From NCBI GenBank assembly GCA_963830065.1, contig CAWHLA010000008.1:1-64000 (forward strand): a DNA stretch of 64,000 nt. Reading direction: 5' to 3'. Each line of letters begins with the position of its first letter. Positions within the stretch are counted from its first letter, which is position 1. Below are positions 7,021 through 29,265 of this stretch, piece by piece. Both the position numbers and the translations under genes were made by a program. Under the pieces are notes generated by a model. The model was not told the DNA's origin. It ran no database searches and saw only the letters and a program-made list of their open reading frames with translations. Source of the DNA: an uncultured Thermoleophilaceae bacterium (GTDB taxonomy: Bacteria > Actinomycetota > Thermoleophilia > Solirubrobacterales > Thermoleophilaceae).

Positions 7021-10000
7021 CATGCGAATCGCTCACTCGTCCTGCTGCTCGTCCTGCTCGCCGCTCGCCGCGCTCGCGGCCGACGCCGCCGCACCCGAAG
7101 CCCGCCGACCGGCCGATCCCGCCGAAGGACGCGCCGCGAAAGATGACCGTGCCCGACGGGCTTCAAGGTCACGCTGTTCGCCGGCGAGCCGGACGTCGTG
7201 CAGCCGATCGCGTTCACGTTCGACGACCGCGGCCGGATGTGGGTCGTCGAGTGCCTCAGCTACCCGAAGTGGCGGCAGGACGGCAAGGGCAACGACCGCG
7301 TCGTCATCCTCGAAGACACCGACGGCGACGGCACGCACGACAAGAAGACCGTGTTCCTCGACAACGGCGTCGAACCTCTCCGGCATCGAACTCGGCTTCG
7401 GCGGCGTGTGGCTCTGCTCGTCGCCGAACCTCGTGTTCGTCCCCGACCTCGACAGGACGACAAGCCGGACGGCCCGCCGGAGGTGATGCTCGACGGCTGG
7501 AACATGAAGGACACCAAGCACAACGTCTTCAACTCCTGCTGGGGGCCGGACGGCTGGCTGTACGGCTGCAACGGCATCCAGGCGAAGGCGTGGGTCGGCA
7601 AGCCCGGCACGCCGGACAAGGACCGCGTCGTACATCGACTGCGGCGTGTGGCGCTACCACCCGACGCGGAAGACGTTCGAGGCGGTCGCCCACGGCACGA
7701 CCAACCCGTTCGGCCTCGACTGGGACGACTACGGCGAGATGTTCATCACCAACTGCGTGATCGACCACCTGTTCCACGTCGTCCCCGGCGGGCACTACGA
7801 GCGGATGTACGGCCAGGACGCGAACCCGCACACCTACGGGCTGATGAAGAGCTGCGTCGACCACAAGCACTGGGCCGGCGGCGACTGGACGAGTTCGCGC
7901 ACGACCGGCGTCGGCGGCGAAGCCGGAGCACTGCGACGCCGGCGGCGGCCACGCCCACAGCGGGCTGCGCGATCTACCTCGGCGACAACTTCCCGGCCGA
8001 GTACCGCAACACGCTGTTCACCTGCAACATCCACGGCAACCGGCTCAACCACGACGGCCTCGAACGCACCAGGAGCGGGCTACGTCGGCGTGCACGCCGC
8101 CGGACTTCCTGTTCGCCAACGACTCGTGGTTCCGCGGCATCTGCGTGAAGGACGGCCCGGACGGCGGGCTGTACGTCAGCGACTGGTGCGACACCGGCGA
8201 GTGCCACAACTACGACATGGCCGACACGACCAACGGCCGCATCTACCGCGTCGTGTACGGCGACGCCGAAGCCGTGGAAGGGCGACGTGTCGAAGCTGAC
8301 CGACGCGGAGCTGGTGAAGCTGCAACTGCACGCCGAACGACTGGTTCGTGCGGCAGGCCCGGCGGGTGCTGCAGGAGCGCGCCGCGGCCGGGAAGCTGGA
8401 GAAGGAGACCGCCGACGCGCTGCGGAAGCTGCTGAAGGACGACCGAGGACGTGCACCTGGAAGCTGCGGGCGCTGTGGGCGCTGCACGCGATCGGCGGGC
8501 TGACCGCGACGGACCTGCGTCGACCTGCTCGCGACACGCCGACGACGACGTCCGGGCGTGGGCCGTCCTGCTCGCCGTCGGAGCCGAGCACGCCGGCGAC
8601 GGAGCTCGTCGAGCGACTCGTCGCAGGCGACCGGCACGGAGGAGTCGCACGTTCGTGCTGCATCGTCGCCGGGGCGCTCCAGCGGCTGCACCGACGCCGA
8701 ACGGCCGCGAGCCTCGCGCGGCCGCCCTGCGTCAAGCGCGAGTCCTCGACACGGACGACCCGAACCTCGCGCTGCTGATGCTGGTACGCGCGTGCAGCAG
8801 GCGGTCGCCAGCACAGACCGAGGAGGCCGACTGGCTCGGCTTCCTCGATCGACGCCGACGCGCACCCGCTCGTCGCCGGCAACATCGCCCGGTACCTCGT
8901 CGCACCGGCCCGGCGACGAGCGCGACGCCCGGCTGACCGTCCTGATCGGCACATGACGCGAAGCACGGCTGCGAGCCGAGTCCAGCTCGACGTCCTGCTC
9001 GGCATCCGCGAAGCGCTCGCCGGGCTGCGCGAGCATCCCGCGCCGGCAGGGCTGGAGGCACGTGTACCCGGCAGCTCGCGCGAGCAGCGACCGCCGGAGG
9101 TCCGCACGCGAGGCCGAGGCGCTCGCCGTGCTGTTCGGCGACAAGGACGCGATCGCCGACGCTCGAAGCCCGCGTCACCGACACCAAGGCGAACCGGCCG
9201 ACGACCGGCGCCGCGGCCGTCGAACTGCTCGCCCGCCGCAAGCTCGCCGGACTTCGCCGACGACGCTCCAGCGGCTTGCTCGACGACCCGGCCGTGCGCG
9301 GCGCCGCGGTCCGCGGCGCTCGCCGCGCTTCCCCGACGCCGACACCCCGGCCGCGATCCTCAAGGCGTACCCGAAGTTCACCGCCGAGCCGAGAAGCCGA
9401 CGCGGTGCAGACGCTCGCGTCGCGCGCCGGCGTGCGCGAAGGCGCTGCTCGACGCCGTCGAGAAGGGCACGTCCCGCGGGCCGACGTGCCGCGTCGTCGC
9501 CGCCCGGCAGGTCCTCGCGCTCAACGACAAGGCGCTGACCGCCCGGCTCGAAAAGGTCTGGGGCAAGATCCGCCCGGCGTCGAAGGAGCGCGCCGCGCTC
9601 ACGAAGAAGTGGAAGGGCGACGCTCACCGACCGACGCGCTCAAGAAGGCCGACTGGCGCAACGGCCGGGTGCTGTTCACCAAGCACTGCGCCGCGTGCCA
9701 CAAGATGTTCGGCGAGGGGGCAGACGTCGGCCCGGAACTGACCGGCTCGCAGCGGACGAACCTCGACTACGTCCTCGAAAACGTCCTCGACCCGAGCGCC
9801 GTCGTGCCCCGCGAGTTCCGGATGATCGAACTTCACCCTCGACCGACGACCGCGCTCGTGTCCGGGCATCGTCCTCCGCGAGACGAAGGACGCGGTGACG
9901 GTCCGCACGACGAACGACACGCGTGATCCTGCCGACGCGCGACATCGACGCGCCGCAAGCCGACGAACGTGTCGATCATGCCCGAGGGGCTGTTCGACCA

Positions 10001-10075
10001 GATGAAGCCCGACGAGGTGCGCGACCTGGTCGCGTACCTGCGGGCGAAGGAACAGGTGCCGATACCGAAGTGAAG
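7021..10075 (+). CDS. PVC-type membrane-bound dehydrogenase domain protein with HEAT repeats and a C-terminal cytochrome c (CxxCH) domain, about 1000 aa, with many frameshifts
   Basis: Signal peptide MRIAHS(L)LLLVLLAA..., then [235 protein letters not shown]-like [18 protein letters not shown], and [62 protein letters not shown] ... [49 protein letters not shown]. This domain architecture is typical of Planctomycetota/Verrucomicrobiota. Confidence 0.7.
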
Positions 10076-10157
10076 TCGAAGCGGCCGCCGTCCAGGCCGG
10101 CAGGCCGGCACGATCCGAAGCTGCCGTTCGCGACTCGCTGTCGTTCGGGATCGCGCC

Positions 10158-11931
10158 ATGCGATCCGCCTGCTCGCCGGAGCTCGTCCATGTTCACCGCT
10201 GCCTGTCCTCGCTCTGCTGTTCGCGCGCTCATGCTCACTCGCCGTCCTCGTTCCCGCCGAGCGGCCCGACCGCCCGCCGCCGGCAAGGCCGGGCGGTCGG
10301 TCGACCGTCGCCACCAACGGCATGGTCGCCACCAGCCACCCGCTCGCGGCCCAGGTCGGCCTCGACGTGCTCAAGAAGGGCGGCAACGCGGTCGACGCGG
10401 CCATCGCCACCAACGCCGCGATGGGCCTCATGGAGCCGATGTCGTGCGGCATCGGCGGCGACCTGTTCGCCATCGTCTGGGACGCCAAGACGCAGAAGCT
10501 CTACGGCCTCAACGCCAGCGGCCGGTCGCCCGTGCAAGGCGACGCTGCGAGTTCTTCGACGAGCAAGGGGCTCGACGGAGATTCCCGACGCACGGGCCCG
10601 CTGTGCTGGTCGGTGCCCGGGTGCGTGGACGGCTGGGACGAGCTGCGGCAGAAGTTCGGCACGCATGCCGTTCGAGGAGCTGCTCGCGCCGAGCATCGCG
10701 CTACGCCGAGAAGGGCGTTCCCGGTGCCGGAGGTGATCGCCGGCTACTGGCGGACGCGCCGAGACGAGCTCGCGACGACCCCGACTGCGGCGAAGATCTA
10801 CCTGCGCCGACGGCCAGTGCCCCGCGGGCCGGCGAGGTGTTCAAGAACCCGCGCCCTGGCCGAGCACCTACCGCGATGATCGCCGAGGGCGGCCGCGACG
10901 CCTTCTACAAGGGCGAGATCGCCGAGAAGCTCGTCGCGTTCTCGGACAGAAGCGGCGGGCTGTTCGCGACGAAGGACTTCGCCGAGCACACGTCCGAGTG
11001 GGTCGAGCCGGTGAAGACGACGCTACCGCGGCTACGACGTGTGGGAACTGCCGCCGCCGGGCCAGGGCATCGCCGTGCTGCAGATGCTCAACCTGCTCGA
11101 ACCGCTACGACCTCAAGAAGCTGGGGCCGACGTCGCCCGACTACTGGCACCTGTTCGTCGAGGCGAAGAAGCTCGCCTACGCCGACCGGGCGAAGTTCTA
11201 CGCCGACCCGCGAGTTCGCCAAGGTGCCGGTCGCCGAGCTGATCTCGAAGGCGTACGCCGACGGAGCGCGCGCAAGCTGATCGACCCGAACGAAGGCGCT
11301 GACCGACGTCCCCGCCGGCGACCCGAAGCTCGGCACGGCCGACACGATCTACCTCTGCGTCGTGGACAAGGACCGCAACTGCGTGTCGCTGATCCAGAGC
11401 AACTACTACGGCTTCGGCTCCGGGCTGCGCGCCCGGCGACCTGGGCTTCGCGCATCCAGAACCGCGGCATGCCTGTTCGCCCTCGACGAGAACGCACGCC
11501 AACCGCCTCGAAGCCGGGCAAGCGGCCGTTCCACACGATCATCCCGGCGATGGTGACGAAGGACGGCAAGCCGTGGTTCACGTTCGGCGTGATGGGCGGC
11601 GACATGCAGCCGCAGGGGCACGTGCAGGTGCTGGTGAACCTGATCGACTTCGGCATGAACGTGCAGGCAGGCCGGCGAGGCGCCGCGGGTCGAGCACGTC
11701 GGCTCGCGCGACGCCGACCGGGCAGCCCGGCGACGCCGAACGGCGGCACGGTCCAGGCCGAGCCGGGCATCCCGGACGACGGTCGTGGAGGAGCTGACGC
11801 GCCGCGGGCACACGGTCGAGCGCGTGCGGCGTCAACGGCGGCGGCTACCAGGGCATCCTGATCGACCCGAAGACGGGCGTGCTGCACGGCGGCAGCGAGG
11901 CCCGCAAGGACGGGCGGCGGTGGGGTATTGA
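10158..11931 (+). CDS. ggt: Gamma-glutamyltransferase, at least 5 frameshifts
   Basis: [180 protein letters not shown](AAVGY*). The C-terminus is only recovered after a 1-nt shift. Confidence 0.7.
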
Positions 11932-15000: not shown

Positions 15001-15411
15001 CCACCCTGGCCATGTACTACCTGCTCGCCGACCCGGACCTGTCGTTCCTGATGATGAACGGCGGGAACGAGCCGGCCAGCGGGTGGGGCCGGCACTGGAT
15101 CGGAGGCGGCCACGTACAACGTCGGCCGGCCGACCGGCGGCGCACAAGGTGTTCGCCACCGGGACCGACCCGACCAACGCGCGGCTGGACTACAAGGTGT
15201 ACGCCGCGGGAGTACCAGAACGCCCTGGTGCTGCTACAAGCCGCTCTCGTACACCCGCGGGGTGAACGGGACGATGGCGGACGACACCGCCACCACGCAC
15301 CAGCTCGGCGGGTGGTACCGGCCGCTGCGGGCCGACGGGACGCTCGGGCCGCCGGTGAACAAGGTCACCCTGCGGAACGGCGAGGGGGCGGTCCTGGTGA
15401 GGGCCCCGTAG
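12094..15411 (+). CDS. Large (about 1100 aa) secreted hypothetical protein with a Planctomycete-type N-terminal LGVEALELRDVPA motif, two tandem ~190-aa internal repeats, a Pro/Thr linker and a C-terminal glycoside-hydrolase-like region, with many frameshifts
   Basis: MRNPAPHRPIRPALGVEALELRDVPAASL. Internal repeat: NSTVPVQLFVRGQNLGTTTPTYYAASVTRGGG...RWVQVKLRAEGDTIRVTLHRGDTNQYLGPDGKW versus DSLVPAGMFARGQNL...YYGLSVTRG...WVQASLVTKGGRLRVQVFRSDTGQYLQPDGTL. Pro-rich PTPTPAADPDPPTTGPTG. Then RLANLAYYGTPLGSFEQSLLRNSVDLVIPNLDYLDDIAAVAPEHP...QFVYTNVSNIYLGLLTDWLEYAD and DGDGYLNDAEYAAGRPGFDARFVYESRLIYPNYGPMRFATNV, TQLATLAMYYLLADPDLSFLMMNGGNEPASGWGRHW. Confidence 0.45.
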
Positions 15412-15427
15412 ATGCTGTTTCGCAACG

Positions 15428-15490
15428 CTGAGCGGGGGGCGTCAGCCCCCCGAGGGCGTCTCCCTCGGGGGGCTGACGCCCCCCGCTCAG
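15428..15490. terminator. Perfect 29-bp inverted repeat with a 5-nt loop, a likely bidirectional terminator between convergent genes
   Basis: ctgagcggggggcgtcagccccccgaggg cgtct ccctcggggggctgacgccccccgctcag. It sits immediately after the TAG of the giant gene and at the 3-prime end of the small minus-strand ORF. Confidence 0.5.
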
Positions 15491-15499
15491 GGGTTGTGA

Positions 15500-15691
15500 A
15501 TACGGTTCCAGATCCCGGCGGCGGACTTCGGCGGCCCAGGAGCGGAACACGAGGGCGGCCGCCAGATCGATCAGCCGCGGGTCGTCCTCCGACAGGCCCG
15601 GGTGTTTGGCGGCGAGGAGTCGCAGGAGGGTGGATACGAGCTGCTCCGCCGATTTGGTGGGGATCTCGGTGGTGGCGGTTGTGGTACACAT
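15500..15691 (-). CDS. Small hypothetical protein (about 65-110 aa, C-terminus unclear) with its own strong promoter
   Basis: ATG at 15691 gives MCTTTATTEIPTKSAEQLVSTLLRLLAAKHPGLSEDDPRLIDLAAALVFRSWAAEVRRRDLEP. In the current frame it reads through the 29-bp palindrome. A 1-nt shift would place a TGA just before the palindrome. Confidence 0.3.
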
Positions 15692-15749
15692 CGGGGCACG
15701 GCGGTTCGGCCGCCGCCGGTCGAACCGGCGGGGAATCAGACACCGGTGA

Positions 15750-15778
15750 AGTGTACTCTCGTTTAGTATACGAGTCAA
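15750..15778 (-). promoter_or_regulatory. Sigma-70-like promoter TTGACT-N17-TACACT on the minus strand, driving the small ORF
   Basis: Reverse complement reads TTGACTcgtatactaaacgagagTACACT. It lies in the least GC-rich stretch of the window, about 50 nt upstream of the ATG at 15691. Confidence 0.4.
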
Positions 15779-15816
15779 TGCGGAGTGGACATTTTTTCAT
15801 ATCGGGTTTTCGCGAA

Positions 15817-16085
15817 GTCAGCTCGCAGGGCAGGGAGTCCTCCTTCTTCAGTCCGAAGGGCTGGGAGCCCTCAGCCCAGGGCAAGGGCCGAAGGCCCGCC
15901 GCCCTGGGTCACGGGCACGCCCGCGGCATGCAGCCTGAAGGGCTGCGAGAGCGTCTCCCAGCCCTTCAGGCTGGGGGCGAACGGGTGGCCCGACCCAGGG
16001 CGTTGCCCTGGGCTGAGGGCTCCCAGCCCTTCGGGCTGAAGACTTCCAGCCCTTCGGGCTGAGGGCTCCCTGCCCTTCGGCTGAC
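15817..16085. repeat. Complex nested palindromic element of about 270 bp, possibly MITE/REP-like or a structured RNA
   Basis: The outer arms gtcagctcgcagggcagggag...ccgaagggctgggagccctcagcccagggcaa (15817-15885) pair with ttgccctgggctgagggctcccagcccttcgg...ctccctgcccttcggctgac (16000-16085). The inner hairpin is cagcctgaagggctg cgagagcgtctc cagcccttcaggctg. The palindromic unit agcccttcgggct recurs. Confidence 0.5.
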
Positions 16086-16131
16086 GACCGGAATCCCCCG
16101 CTCGGGGGTTACGAAAGCTCGCAGCAAACCT

Positions 16132-17822
16132 CTACTCCTTCCGCATCGGCAGCCGGAACACGAATCGGGTGCCCTGCCCCGGCTCGCTCGCGGCGGTCAG
16201 GTCGCCGCCGTGCTCGCGGAGGATCTTGCGGCTGACCGGCAGGCCCAGCCCGGTCCCCCGCGCCCCCTTCGTGCTCACGAACGGCTTGAAGATGTCGTCC
16301 AGCTTCTCCGCCGGGATGCCGGGGCCGTTGTCGAGCACGATCACCTTCGGCCCACGCCCCGTCCGGCTCCAGCAGCGCCTGCACCGCCACCTGCGGGGCC
16401 GGCCGGCCCTCGACCGCGTCGAGGGCGTTGCTCACGAGGTTCAGCACCGCCCGGTGGATGCCGTCCGGGTCGCACGGGCACCGCCGGCACGTCCGGCCGC
16501 CGGGCGCCAGTCCAGCGTCGACGCCCGCCGTCGTCGGCCCGGCCGCGGACCATGTCCAGCACGTCCTCGCACAGCGTTGTTCAGGTCGGTCGGCTCGATC
16601 GCCGGCTCGCGCTCCTTCGAGTAGCTGAGCATGTCCAGGATCAGCTCGTCGATCCGGCCCTGGTTCTTCTCGACCAGCTTCCAGCCCTTGCCGAGCAGGT
16701 CCTTGTCGTCCGTCGTCGAGGCCCGTGCGGACCATGTCGCCGCCGAACCGGACGCCCTGCATGATGTTCTTGATGTGGTGCGACAGGGCCGCGATCGTCT
16801 GGCCGACGGCCGCCAGCCGCTCGGCGTTGACCAGCGCCTGGTGGTAGCGGCGTCTCCTCGACCGCCAGGGCCGCCTGGTGGGCGATGGCGACTGGCCAGG
16901 TGCAGGTGGTCCTCGGTGAACTTGCCGGCTCCGGCCGCCGGCGACGAGCTGCTTGAGCGTGCGACTGGGTGTCGAGGAACAGCACGCCGAGCGTCTCGCG
17001 CCGGCCCTTCATCGGCACGCAGATGACCTCGCGGATGTTGTGCCGGTGCGATGCTCTCGCCGCCGCGGAACCGGTCGTCGGCGCGGCGTCGGAGACGAGC
17101 ACGCCCTGCTTCTCCTTCAGCACGTGGTCGACGATCGTCCGGCTGACGGCGAGCTCCTCCTGCCGGCTGCAGCCCCGTCGCGGTAGCGGACGGCCTTCGG
17201 GCATCGAGCTCGCCGGTCCGTCGTCGCGGAGCATGAAGCAGCCGTGGTCGGCGTCGACCGACTTGAGCACCAGGTCCATCACCGGTCGAGCAGCTGGTCC
17301 ACGTCGAGGATGTGGCTGACGGCCTCGGCGGTCTCGTACAGGGCGGCGAGGCTGGCGAGCCGGGTGCGGAGCCAGTCGGTCGCGGCCGTCGTCCGGGCGG
17401 GCGAGGATCTGGCTGCCGGCGTCCGCGCCGACGGTGCGGACGATGGCCGAGGCGACGTCCTGGTCGCGGCCGCGGCGAGCAGCCGGACGCGGCTCGGTCA
17501 GCTCGTCGGCCGCGGGCGTCGTCCCGCGCCGGCGGTGTACATCAGGACCGTCTGGCCGAGCGTGATCGTGGTCGCCGCTGCGGAGCGGGGCGGCCTGGAC
17601 CGGCTGGCCGTTGACGAGCGTGCCGTTGCCGCTGCCGAGGTCGACGAGCTCGGTACCCGCCGCCGGCGGTGGCGCGGAGTTCCAGGTGCCGGCGGGACAC
17701 CTGGGTGTCGTGCAGGGCGACGGCGTTGCGCCGAGTGCCGGCCGACGGTGACGGCGGGGCCGGCCAGGTCGAACTGCCGGCCCTCGTCGGCGCCCTTGAT
17801 GACGATGAGTTTGGGCATCGGC
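16132..17822 (-). CDS. Sensor histidine kinase with an N-terminal FHA domain and a GAF domain (FHA-GAF-HisKA-HATPase_c), frameshifted
   Basis: FHA: MPKLIVIKGADEGRQFDLAGPAVTVGRH...ELVDLGSGNGTLVNGQPVQAAPLRSGD and ITLGQTVLMYT. GAF: VMDLVLKSVDADHGCFMLRDD...ELAVSRTIVDHVLKEKQGVLVSDA...HNIREVICVPMKGRRETLGVLFLDT. HATPase_c: HRAVLNLVSNALDAVEG and MIVLDNGPGIPAEKLDDIFKPFVSTKGARGTGLGLPVSRKILREHGGDLTAASEPGQGTRFVFRLPM. Confidence 0.65.
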
Positions 17823-17829
17823 CGCCCCC

Positions 17830-17863
17830 GTAGGGTGGGCCTCGCGGACTCGGCCCACCCTAC
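17830..17863 (-). terminator. 12-bp stem with a 10-nt loop, between the YcxB-like gene and the kinase gene
   Basis: gtagggtgggcc tcgcggactc ggcccaccctac. Confidence 0.4.
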
Positions 17864-17871
17864 AAGTGCTA

Positions 17872-18276
17872 TCATCTGGGTTCGTCCGACTCTTCGTCGC
17901 GCATCCGCCGGCGGATCGGTTGCAAGAATGACTCCAGTTCCTGGTCGGAGGCGAACGCGTCGCGAGGGACCGCTGTCATGAAATCGGCCAAGTAGATGAA
18001 CACGTGCCCGGGCGCATCCGTGATGCCGGTGACCATGTCCCAGGTTACCGTGAGGAATGCCGACGCGGTGCCGGCTTCGACTCCAGCGTCCGTGACGACT
18101 ATGCGGTACGGCCCGAGTAATATCCGGGCCCCCGGGGCACGGTAGCCGGCTTCCACAGATTGTTTGTACCGCCGGCGGGCCTGATCGGGGTAGACGATCG
18201 CCCACACAGCGAACGGGGTCAGCATCAGCATCGCCATCAGACCCGCGACGGGCGTCGGGGTAGGTTTCGGTATCAA
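17872..18276 (-). CDS. YcxB-like small membrane protein (TTG start)
   Basis: IPKPTPTPVAGLMAMLMLTPFAVWAIVYP (TM helix), then ILLGPYRIVVTDAGVEAGTASAFLTVTWDMVTGITDAPGHVFIYLADFMTAVPRDAFASDQELESFLQ. The frame is intact. Confidence 0.45.
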   Translation of the reverse strand: MIPKPTPTPVAGLMAMLMLTPFAVWAIVYPDQARRRYKQSVEAGYRAPGARILLGPYRIVVTDAGVEAGTASAFLTVTWDMVTGITDAPGHVFIYLADFMTAVPRDAFASDQELESFLQPIRRRMRDEESDEPR

Positions 18277-26340: not shown

Positions 26341-26435
26341 TCCGGGCGAACGGCCGGCGTCAGCCGGCTGGTGCGACCCGGAGCCGCCTGCGCCAAGGGA
26401 AACACCAGCCGGCTGACGCCGGCCGTTCGCCCGGA
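26341..26435. repeat. Perfect 33-bp inverted repeat with a 29-nt loop in the rpmA/argJ divergent intergenic region
   Basis: tccgggcgaacggccggcgtcagccggctggtg ...29 nt... caccagccggctgacgccggccgttcgcccgga. Confidence 0.55.
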
Positions 26436-27793: not shown

Positions 27794-28690
27794 ATGACCC
27801 CTCATCGAACTCGACGCGATCACCCGCACGTTCGGCACGTTCACCGCGCTGCACGACGTCACGCTGTCGCTGCCGCCGGGGCGGGTCGGGCTGCTCGGGC
27901 CGAACGGGGCCGGCAAGTCCACGCTGCTCAAGATCCTGATGGGGCTGCTCCCGCCGTCGCGCGGCACCGGCCGCGTGCTCGACCAGCCGACCTCGGCGGC
28001 GACCGCGACGCCGAGGGCAACTGGCGGCTGCGGCGGCTCATCGGCTTCATGCCCGAGGCCGACGCGCTCGTGCCCGGGCTGACCGGCGTCGAGTACGTCG
28101 CCCTGGCCGGCGAGCTGTACGGCATGCCGCGCCGGCAGGCCCAGCGCCGGGCCCACGAGGTGCTGTCGTACCTCGAACTGGAGGAGGCCCGCTACCGCCG
28201 CTCGAGGAGTACTCCGACCGGCATGAAGCAGCGGGCGAAGCTGGCCCAGGCGCTGGTCCACGACCCGCCGGTGCTGCTGCTCGACGAGCCGACCAGCGGC
28301 CTCGACCCGGCCGGCCGCGACGCCATGCTGCGGCTGGTGCCGCGCGCTCGGCACGCGACCACGGCAAGTCGGTGCATGCTCTCCACGCACCTGCTGGCCG
28401 ACGTGGAGGCGGTGTGCGAGCGGGTGGTGATCCTGGCCGGCGGGCGGGTCCGCGGGCAGGGGACGGTCGAGCGAGCTGTGCGCCCGCCGGCAGGACCGCT
28501 ACCGCTTGCGGGTGCAGGGCGACCCGGCCGCGTTCCGCGACGAGCTGGCGGCCGAGGGCGTGACGGTGCTCGGCCGACAACGGCCAGGGCGAGTGGCGGG
28601 TGGCGGTGCCGGCCGGCTGGTCGAACCTGGCGTTCTTCAAGCTGGCCGACGTGAACGACGTGGTCATCCGCGCGCTGCTGCCGCGACGAC
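27794..28690 (+). CDS. ABC transporter ATP-binding protein, frameshifted
   Basis: [63 protein letters not shown] (Walker A), then [43 protein letters not shown] (signature/Walker B). Confidence 0.6.
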
Positions 28691-28728
28691 GAGACGCTGG
28701 AGGAGCTGTTCCTCCGGACGGTGGCGAG

Positions 28729-29265
28729 TTAGCCGGACGCTGAGCAGCGAGCGCGAGCCGTCGCTGCTCGACGTCGCGGCTGACTCGCCGCTACCGACGC
28801 CGATGCCCGCGCACACCGACACCCTGTTGCGCTACCGCCCGTGGCGCGGCACGCTGCACGGGCCGCTGTGCGCGGCCGTGGCGATGGCCCGGGTGTCGCT
28901 GCGGCTGCATGTTCCGCCGCCGGCTGTTCTGGGGGCTGTTCGCCCTCGGCCTGCTCGTGTTCTTCTTCTTCTTCTACGGCCAGTACCTCGTCGTCTGGAT
29001 CACGCAACCAGCTCGCCGACCGAGACCGTGCCGGTTCGCCGGCATCCCGGTGCACGCGTCGACGACCTGACGAAGTTCCTCGACCGGCTCGCCCTGAACG
29101 GCACCGCCCACACGTTCGGCAACTTCATCTGGTTCGAGGGGTACGTGCGTCGTGATCGTGCTGGCCCTGGCCGGGTCGGTGCTGGTCGGCAACGACTTCT
29201 TCCACGGCAGCCTGCCGTTCTACCTGTCGAAGCCGATCGGCCGGTGGCACTACGTCCTCGGCAGC
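28729..29265 (+). CDS. ABC-2-type permease fragment, frameshifted and cut off mid-gene at the junction
   Basis: LLRYRPWRGTLHGPLCAAVAMARVSLRLH, RLFWGLFALGLLVFFFFFYGQYLVVWITQ, IVLALAGSVLVGNDFFHGSLPFYLSKPIGRWHYVLG. No plausible continuation follows ~29265. Confidence 0.4.

Follow-up and report, generated by a model that had tools for sequence, protein, structure and literature searches.

What are the palindromes that lie between two convergent genes at positions 15412-16131 of this 64,000-nt stretch of DNA (hereafter the window, meaning the whole stretch analysed)? A sequence-only reading had described here a perfect 29-bp-stem hairpin, a larger element of nested inverted repeats and a small open reading frame (ORF) behind a promoter-like site. 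It had left three possibilities for the larger element: a mobile palindrome akin to repetitive extragenic palindromes (REPs) or miniature inverted-repeat transposable elements (MITEs), a terminator of the neighbouring kinase gene, or a structured RNA. Our analysis favours the first of these. Most probably, the gap holds members of two unrelated dispersed families of palindromic repeats of the REP/MITE type, together with one orphan ORF. The arms of the larger palindrome resemble Acido-Lenti-1, a catalogued candidate small RNA (sRNA). Only the link between that motif and a mobile repeat sets the region apart; it is otherwise largely ordinary.

Two palindromic repeat families in the gap

The nested inverted repeats reported earlier at 15817-16085 are real and lie within a predicted hairpin that spans 15803-16123. 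Whichever strand is folded, 15800-16131 forms one long hairpin (-252.8 and -263.2 kcal/mol, z = -15.7 and -14.7), with inverted arms of 60 nt (15845-15904 and 15983-16042, 83% complementary) and many pairs nested within. The smaller palindrome, folded as RNA over 15412-15510, reaches -90.4 kcal/mol, against -44.5 +/- 3.6 for shuffled sequences (z = -12.7). Folding, which had been suggested as a check, thus finds both regions extremely stable (z = -12.7 to -15.7), and both palindromes are far beyond chance. The large one is made up as follows.

15803..16123, no strand: predicted long hairpin at its full extent (RNA folding)
15845..16043, no strand: 199-nt core common to the dispersed repeat family, TCTTCAG...CTGAAGA(C) (BLAST, alignment)
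15849..15908, minus strand: left inner arm, Acido-Lenti-1-like two-hairpin module, 23.5 bits, with an 18-nt insertion in the loop of the first hairpin
15931..15973, no strand: central hairpin, its 20-nt arms 95% complementary and its loop 3 nt long
15994..16038, plus strand: right inner arm, Acido-Lenti-1-like module, 31.0 bits, model positions 1-46
16010..16080, plus strand: three tandem 23-nt units, each an 8-nt linker and a stem-loop CAGCCC-TTCG-GGCTG

The tandem units at 16010-16080 lengthen the right arm past its canonical terminus. The unit CAGCCCTTCGGGCTG occurs 5 times in the element with 0-1 mismatch, and at up to 2 mismatches it has 8 matches in the whole window, where 0.42 would be expected. 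In a different genome, the terminal 23-nt stem-loop unit is also tandemly duplicated, independently (L019, 6162-6207), which suggests that the ends of the element are prone to slippage. No coding signal was found within the large element in any frame, in agreement with the earlier view that the ORFs predicted there are spurious.

The core of this palindrome is repeated in other genomes. A degenerate 25-nt pattern derived from the repeated unit, scanned against one genome per species, was found at 37 loci in 4 genomes. Three of these genomes belong to Fimbriiglobus (31 loci in SMAG_U873, 3 in SMAG_U13660 and 1 in SRP302895_co1_12); the fourth, with 2 loci, is bacterium SCN18_71_11, which came from a bioreactor and has 71% GC. 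A large number of the matches lie at contig ends, and many form -/+ pairs about 145 nt apart. Full-length copies in the Fimbriiglobus metagenome-assembled genomes (MAGs) and in the SCN18 bacterium are 69-81% identical to window positions 15845-16043 in BLAST comparisons. An alignment of 26 copies predicts 61 base pairs, 13 of which show compensatory changes. The termini of the core are almost invariant in these copies (TCTTCAGCCCGAAGGGCTGGGAG...CTCCCAGCCCTTCGGGCTGAAGA) and each arm holds a hairpin CCCRGGGC-N4-GCCCYGGG, with variable spacers and two covarying versions of the central hairpin. An asymmetric insertion of 18 nt in the left arm is common to the window copy and to two others, L016 and L030, and because of it we assign the three, which come from three genomes, to one subfamily.

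The copies are nearly all found in intergenic DNA. Nineteen of 23 lie between two called genes (7 convergent, 10 tandem, 2 divergent), while one overlaps a called ORF and three have no called gene on one side. Several sit 4-8 nt past a stop codon, and the genes beside them are ordinary planctomycete genes, such as those encoding DUF1559 and DUF1501 proteins. The window copy fits this pattern, as its hairpin ends about 10 nt beyond the kinase stop codon; its other edge is about 25 nt upstream of the promoter-like site. Our literature search on palindromic repeats of Gemmata or Gemmataceae returned nothing specific.

The 29-bp palindrome had been presented as a separate curiosity. It is real, but it is actually a member of a widespread family that we call P1. 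Its perfect 29-nt inverted repeats (15428-15456 and 15462-15490, with a 5-nt spacer) each include GAGCGGGGGGCGTCAGCCCCC. A second, partial P1 sequence is present between the array of 23-nt units and the kinase stop codon.

15414..15506, no strand: P1-type palindromic repeat, the perfect arms and, flanking them, about 13 nt that pair more weakly
16078..16115, no strand: partial second P1 right arm and flank, GGCTGACG[ACCGGAAT]CCCCCGCTCGGGGGTTACGAA (score 35, null maximum 28)

A Fimbriiglobus locus carries a P1 homologue whose two arms both show C-to-A changes that are compensatory. Scanning metagenomes with GAGCGGNGGGCGTNAGCCCCC yielded at least 120 loci, and among the matches listed the contigs range from 47 to 76% GC and 109 of the 190 P1 arms are paired with an inverted one at a distance of 13-193 nt. 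The arm also occurs in 22 stretches of viral contigs; sequenced plasmids and phages gave no P1 match. The conserved part is the 27-nt arm GGCGAGCGGGGGGCGTNAGCCCCCTGA, the spacer and often some extra flanking pairing being locus-specific. All five paired copies that could be classified by gene context have convergent genes on their two sides, with a stop codon often 4-20 nt away, and P1 dimers show no obvious target-site duplications. The 29-bp palindrome is a head-to-head P1 dimer, and P1 a REP-like family of stem-loops widespread in environmental bacteria. P1 units also form arrays and not just inverted dimers, as indicated by locus L041 (metagenome contig Ga0307374_10000101), where positions 1440-2340 consist of six tandem 137-nt repeats on one strand with one P1 arm each; judged by eye, these repeats seem to contain further short hairpin-forming stretches as well.

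The partial arm at 16078-16115 has a parallel in L038, the sole one of three contigs with orthologous kinase genes to carry P1, where the palindrome lies 3 nt past the kinase stop codon. Probably, a P1 hairpin formerly stood at the 3' end of the kinase gene in the window as well, and the larger element is now beside or inside it.

A third family, P2, is represented elsewhere in the window by a second perfect palindrome at 26341-26435, with 33-nt arms and a 29-nt spacer (GAACGGCCGGCGTNAGCCGGCTGG). P2 homologues are present in L019 (4417-4485), L016 (59-82) and L033 (822-845), and a core GGCGTNAGCC is common to P2 and P1.

Mobility of sister copies

How did the large palindrome come to be dispersed? 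Homology among its copies ends 35-55 nt beyond the core. In one group, subfamily B, the outer 35 nt are inverted repeats starting TGCTCTGTYGAAA, and the whole element measures about 256 nt. Exact direct repeats of 7-10 nt are found at the boundary of these outer inverted repeats in 5 of 11 copies, whereas 110 mismatched flank pairs, used as a control, gave no repeat longer than 5 nt; three further cases of target-site duplication were recognised by eye. Because of its terminal inverted repeats and 7-10-bp target-site duplications, subfamily B qualifies as a MITE. Its outer repeat (TGCTCTGTTGAAA...) and the end of the insertion sequence (IS) IS903 have GCT(C/T)TGTTGAA in common (shuffle p about 0.006-0.013). 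The IS903 end sequence used, GGCTTTGTTGAATAAATC, matches IS903-annotated plasmid DNA, in which it bounds a 1057-bp element as an inverted repeat. IS903 generates target-site duplications of 9 bp. Judging from these ends, the MITE of subfamily B is plausibly of IS5/IS903 ancestry. The multi-copy core and the transposon-type boundaries of sister copies bear out the earlier suggestion of a REP/MITE-like mobile palindrome.

These observations can be combined into the following scenario. The large palindrome, of about 270-320 bp, would be a decayed and rearranged copy of a repeat family from Gemmata-like planctomycetes (Gemmataceae), whose core consists of two inverted two-hairpin Acido-Lenti-1 arms flanking a central hairpin. 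In sister genomes, this core is packaged in IS903-like terminal inverted repeats and has transposed as a non-autonomous element, leaving duplications of about 9 bp; presumably, a DDE transposase of the IS5/IS903 type mobilised it in trans. The copies build up between genes, as a rule a few nucleotides past stop codons. The window copy would adjoin an older P1 hairpin, or possibly lie within it, and would have gained its tandem 23-nt units by local duplication.

Two candidate traces of transposition at the window copy itself were rejected. A 9-nt repeat, AGCTCGCAG, at 15820-15828 and 16117-16125 might pass for a target-site duplication, but its left copy is within the paired stem and we estimate the probability of such a repeat by chance at about 0.17. 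By eye, the outer arms and P1 flanks in the window resemble IS903-like ends; shuffle tests reject this resemblance, with p >= 0.05 in 23 of 24 comparisons.

Several copies of P1 and of subfamily B (L142, L081, L015 and L032) have locus-specific flanks that are mutually inverted, so that the palindrome is longer than the conserved arms. Such flanks may stem from insertion into existing palindromes or from copying from arm to arm.

Several points weigh against this scenario. The large element is single-copy within the 64-kb window, it has no target-site duplication there, and its outer arms show no significant similarity to the subfamily-B ends or to IS903. We infer from the sister subfamily, and not from the window copy itself, that the latter arrived by the same route. 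A search of about 1.2 Mb of retrieved loci found no full-length IS whose ends match. When 132 ORFs neighbouring the copies were scanned, no transposase family among the best 25 of 157 families was matched by two or more of them, nor was there any enrichment of transposases, RAYTs (REP-associated tyrosine transposases) or group II introns beside copies among those best 25. One sister copy, L030, consists of the core alone, with the outer inverted repeats absent, and for this reason the core may spread by a different, REP-like route. The gap also sits in an error-prone part of the sequence. As to function, the very stable hairpins, if transcribed as 3' untranslated regions, may stop or stabilise the convergent transcripts; no terminator-like site (hairpin plus U-tract) was found in 15300-16300.

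Could the repeats instead be REPs and REPINs (paired REPs in inverted orientation), spread by RAYTs of the HUH/Y1 type acting on single-stranded hairpins, with the IS903-like chassis being incidental? Short GC-rich stem-loops, inverted dimers with variable spacers, tandem arrays and a position 3' of genes are all reminiscent of REPs, which behave in this way (Di Nocera et al. 2013, PMC3733652). Moreover, more than one kind of inverted-repeat chassis surrounds the core, which in one case stands alone, and the P1 dimers lack obvious target-site duplications. Nevertheless, we consider this explanation unlikely. The GTAG/CGTC tag that is part of the REP definition (PMC3733652) is absent from the CAGCCC-TTCG-GGCTG unit and from the P1 arm. 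The best 25 of 157 families include no Y1 transposase with matches in at least two of the 132 ORFs beside the copies, and subfamily B has target-site duplications of 7-10 bp. Single-strand transposition by HUH enzymes, as in IS200/IS605, is not known to make any.

A joint reading of both families can also be put forward, though we regard it as improbable. The core of about 190 nt, with its inverted Acido-Lenti-1 arms, would be a mobile module that targets structure and enters existing palindromes at their centres. If so, its hosts may be the P1 hairpin at the 3' end of the kinase gene, the IS903-like chassis and, in sister genomes, two or more further inverted-repeat chassis; the 27-nt P1 arm, which is conserved in hundreds of environmental and viral contigs that differ widely in GC, may be recognised by a second protein system; and Acido-Lenti-1 may be a signal of mobile DNA in the Planctomycetes-Verrucomicrobia-Chlamydiae (PVC) superphylum, including Lentisphaerae, and not an sRNA.

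Acido-Lenti-1-like modules as arms of the repeat

Is the large palindrome a structured RNA, as had also been proposed? An Rfam search of the whole window, another check suggested earlier, gave no match at curated thresholds, and a scan for tRNAs and tmRNA likewise gave none. With permissive settings, both arms of the large palindrome match Acido-Lenti-1 (RF01687) across the full 46-nt model, at 31.0 and 23.5 bits, below the gathering threshold of 37 bits; the remaining matches of that scan were obvious false matches to miRNA hairpins. Both window arms have the two-hairpin architecture with the conserved GGCU junction over model positions 1-46. In the cmscan alignments, the 31.0-bit arm contains no non-canonical pairs and the 23.5-bit arm one, in the second hairpin. 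The motif is better preserved in sister copies. Fourteen arms in Fimbriiglobus loci score above threshold, at 37.9-39 bits, and an independent metagenome copy, L046, has a -/+ pair above threshold, at 47.2 bits, inside a 251-nt element with the same IS903-like ends; the second stem-loop of L046 has a covarying sequence.

Acido-Lenti-1 was described from Acidobacteria and Lentisphaerae as a probable sRNA, with no known function and sometimes near group II introns, in a description that contains no experimental evidence of a discrete RNA (Weinberg et al. 2010, PMC2864571). The published seed coordinates (PMC2864571) include tandem arrays as well as -/+ pairs of about 185 nt, which match the size of the core. 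Such pairs are found in Lentisphaera araneosa at NZ_ABCK01000016.1 15912-16096 and 16151-16336. The composite element may be older than the split between Planctomycetes and Lentisphaerae, or it may be moving between both. The Acido-Lenti-1-type core is absent from the viral contigs, and the P1-bearing metagenome loci contain just one partial variant. In a shorter variant (L152, 1540-1655; 27.4 bits), the Acido-Lenti-1-like hairpins are outside and the small stem-loops inside, the opposite dimer orientation.

One could therefore regard the element, or each of its arms, as a functional gene for a trans-acting Acido-Lenti-1 sRNA, with the many copies forming a gene family. Both arms cover the 46-nt model and sister copies reach 37.9-47.2 bits, the base pairs covary, the stem-loops carry loops of the C(UUCG)G type, and the motif was rated a probable RNA (Weinberg et al. 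2010, PMC2864571). We nonetheless find an sRNA gene quite unlikely. The element is strand-symmetric, with one arm on the minus and one on the plus strand, and both strands fold equally well. A DNA palindrome predicts the same covariation, and because of the strand symmetry covariation cannot separate RNA structure from a palindrome in DNA. The transposon features, namely the inverted repeats and target-site duplications of sister copies, lead us to favour the latter. Copies show every orientation with respect to the genes around them and often lie 4-8 nt from stop codons; no arm is framed by a promoter or a terminator; and the window arms are under the Rfam threshold. The proposal of a structured RNA thus receives nominal support from the likeness of the arms to Acido-Lenti-1, but from matches that are below threshold and in a strand-symmetric element.

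On our interpretation, Acido-Lenti-1, a candidate sRNA since 2010, behaves here as the inner arm of a palindromic repeat, and that repeat is a transposing MITE in at least one subfamily, a concrete reinterpretation of the motif. More generally, Gemmataceae genomes contain several families of very stable hairpin repeats just past stop codons, which break short-read assemblies. Such stop-adjacent repeats could provide 3'-end structures in this phylum, about whose terminators little is known. For the window itself the import is small: its hairpins are selfish or structural repeats, to be masked and not annotated as genes or RNAs.

The locus and its place among known systems

What remains of the gap is a small ORF with a promoter-like site, framed by the ends of two genes.

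15409..15411, plus strand: stop codon TAG of the frameshift-riddled gene before the gap
15365..15691, minus strand: orphan ORF of 108 codons, MCTTTATTEIPTKSAEQL..., with its ATG at 15691
15721..15820, no strand: the window's 100-nt stretch richest in AT, 49% GC
15750..15778, minus strand: sigma-70-like promoter match TTGACT-N17-TACACT, 9/12 consensus positions
16132..16134, minus strand: stop codon of the FHA-GAF histidine kinase gene, which covers about 16132-18040

The small ORF had been called strongly promoted. The ORF and the TTGACT-N17-TACACT site are present, but this was an over-reading, given the 9/12 match, the weak coding signal and the lack of homologues. One promoter-type site was found where 0.1 would be expected. 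It lies in what had been described as the only AT-enriched patch; this is the lowest-GC 100 nt, but other dips in the window reach 53-56%. The ORF crosses the P1 palindrome and then runs 47 nt into the convergent gene, so that its last 42 codons or so are read-through of the palindrome. With a codon-usage model trained on the intact genes of the window, its first 66 codons (15494-15691) have a log-odds score of +0.21 per codon, the best of six frames, which corresponds to the 6.7th percentile of true genes and exceeds 99.4% of wrong-frame windows; for the stretch within the palindrome the value is -0.34. No match was returned by an exact-protein look-up, no homologue by a k-mer/HMMER search of 5.8 billion proteins or in viral contigs, and no credible match by Pfam. 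A phmmer search of 1.84 billion representative proteins likewise found no homologue, its sole match being a spurious repetitive protein. The ORF would be a short, lineage-specific or degraded coding segment, whose real end the palindrome or sequencing errors may hide; its apparent C-terminus would result from read-through of the palindrome, possibly via an indel error.

The minus-strand gene, described earlier as that of an FHA-GAF kinase, encodes an FHA-GAF-histidine kinase. The class is assigned via orthologues with 73-77% amino-acid identity, under the names Urbifossiella, Gemmata and Zavarzinella, and reading the gene requires at least 10 frameshifts. On the plus strand, the last gene before the gap has no Pfam match, and pieces of a DUF7133 protein and of a gamma-glutamyltranspeptidase lie upstream, at 7198-8145 and 9923-11277. 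The earlier description placed the 29-bp-stem hairpin right after the stop codon of a giant gene; the palindrome indeed starts 17 nt past that stop, but the plus strand upstream seems not to be one giant gene. Both genes flanking the gap contain numerous frameshifts. From position 1 to about 29.6 kb, the coding phase, judged by GC content at third codon positions (GC3) and codon log-odds, shifts every 200-400 bp on both strands, whereas the sequence beyond 29.7 kb has unbroken ORFs of 1-2 kb. The frameshifts probably reflect long-read indel errors or a stretch of low coverage, and gene calls in this part are unreliable. The kinase orthologues are on nanopore-style contigs, where the gene is split too. 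Further along this part, window positions 27798-29263 are 82.5% identical to a Fimbriiglobus contig (L023).

Two explanations that need no repeat family fare worse than those weighed above. According to the first, the hairpins are regulatory structures that evolved in place, the smaller as a bidirectional terminator and the larger as a terminator or insulator of the kinase gene. P1 does lie 17 nt past one stop codon and the large hairpin about 10 nt past that of the kinase, and the folding energies are extreme. However, both sequences belong to families dispersed at unrelated loci, and neither hairpin is followed by a U-tract. The large element is missing downstream of the kinase gene in all three orthologue contigs compared (74-85% nucleotide identity). 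Synteny between these contigs and the window is limited to the kinase gene itself, hence none of them provides a true empty site. Since the orthologous loci differ in carrying the hairpins, we view these as variable insertions and not as conserved parts of the locus. A local regulatory origin is thus very improbable, and the idea of a large kinase-specific terminator is not supported as an account of how the element arose, although a secondary role as a 3' hairpin is possible. Artefacts of an error-prone long-read assembly, for which the frameshifts every 200-400 bp in the first 29.6 kb and the nanopore-style related contigs might argue, are almost certainly not the explanation, because the same repeat families are present in many short-read assemblies made independently (k141 MEGAHIT and SPAdes NODE contigs), their architecture is conserved and they show compensatory changes; sequencing error does not create such palindromes.

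How, then, do the dispersed repeats compare with known systems? Bacterial MITEs include the Correia elements of Neisseria, ERIC, RUP and Nezha. Like these, the family of the large palindrome is short (about 190-320 bp), non-coding and highly self-complementary, with tens of copies in intergenic DNA, often at the 3' ends of genes, and with terminal inverted repeats and target-site duplications in sister copies. It differs in that its sequence is unrelated to any named MITE and its core is modular, with REP-like stem-loops inside and several inverted-repeat chassis outside, while the window copy has no recognisable transposase-type ends or duplication. With IS903, a member of the IS5 family (1057 bp, 18-bp inverted repeats, 9-bp duplication), the likeness concerns the ends of subfamily B, and the 7-10-bp flanking repeats fit as well. 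That likeness is short, however (10 of 11 nt, shuffle p about 0.01), and the outer arms in the window do not have it.

P1 and the 15-nt CAGCCC-TTCG-GGCTG unit recall REPs, bacterial interspersed mosaic elements (BIMEs) and REPINs, in forming dimers with variable spacers and arrays downstream of convergent or tandem genes. Unlike these, they have no GTAG/CGTC tag and no RAYT association was seen among the MAG fragments, and the 27-nt P1 arms are unusually conserved over contigs of 47-76% GC, viral ones included. With Acido-Lenti-1, the family of the large palindrome has in common a multi-copy, clustered 46-nt module of two hairpins, CCYAGNGC-loop-GCNCTRGGCT followed by a linker and a short stem with a UUCG-like loop. 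Acido-Lenti-1 was published as a candidate trans-acting sRNA and not as part of a transposon, whereas here, in Gemmataceae, it always forms an inverted pair around a central hairpin, of which the window holds a version with sub-threshold arms and an 18-nt insertion in the left one.

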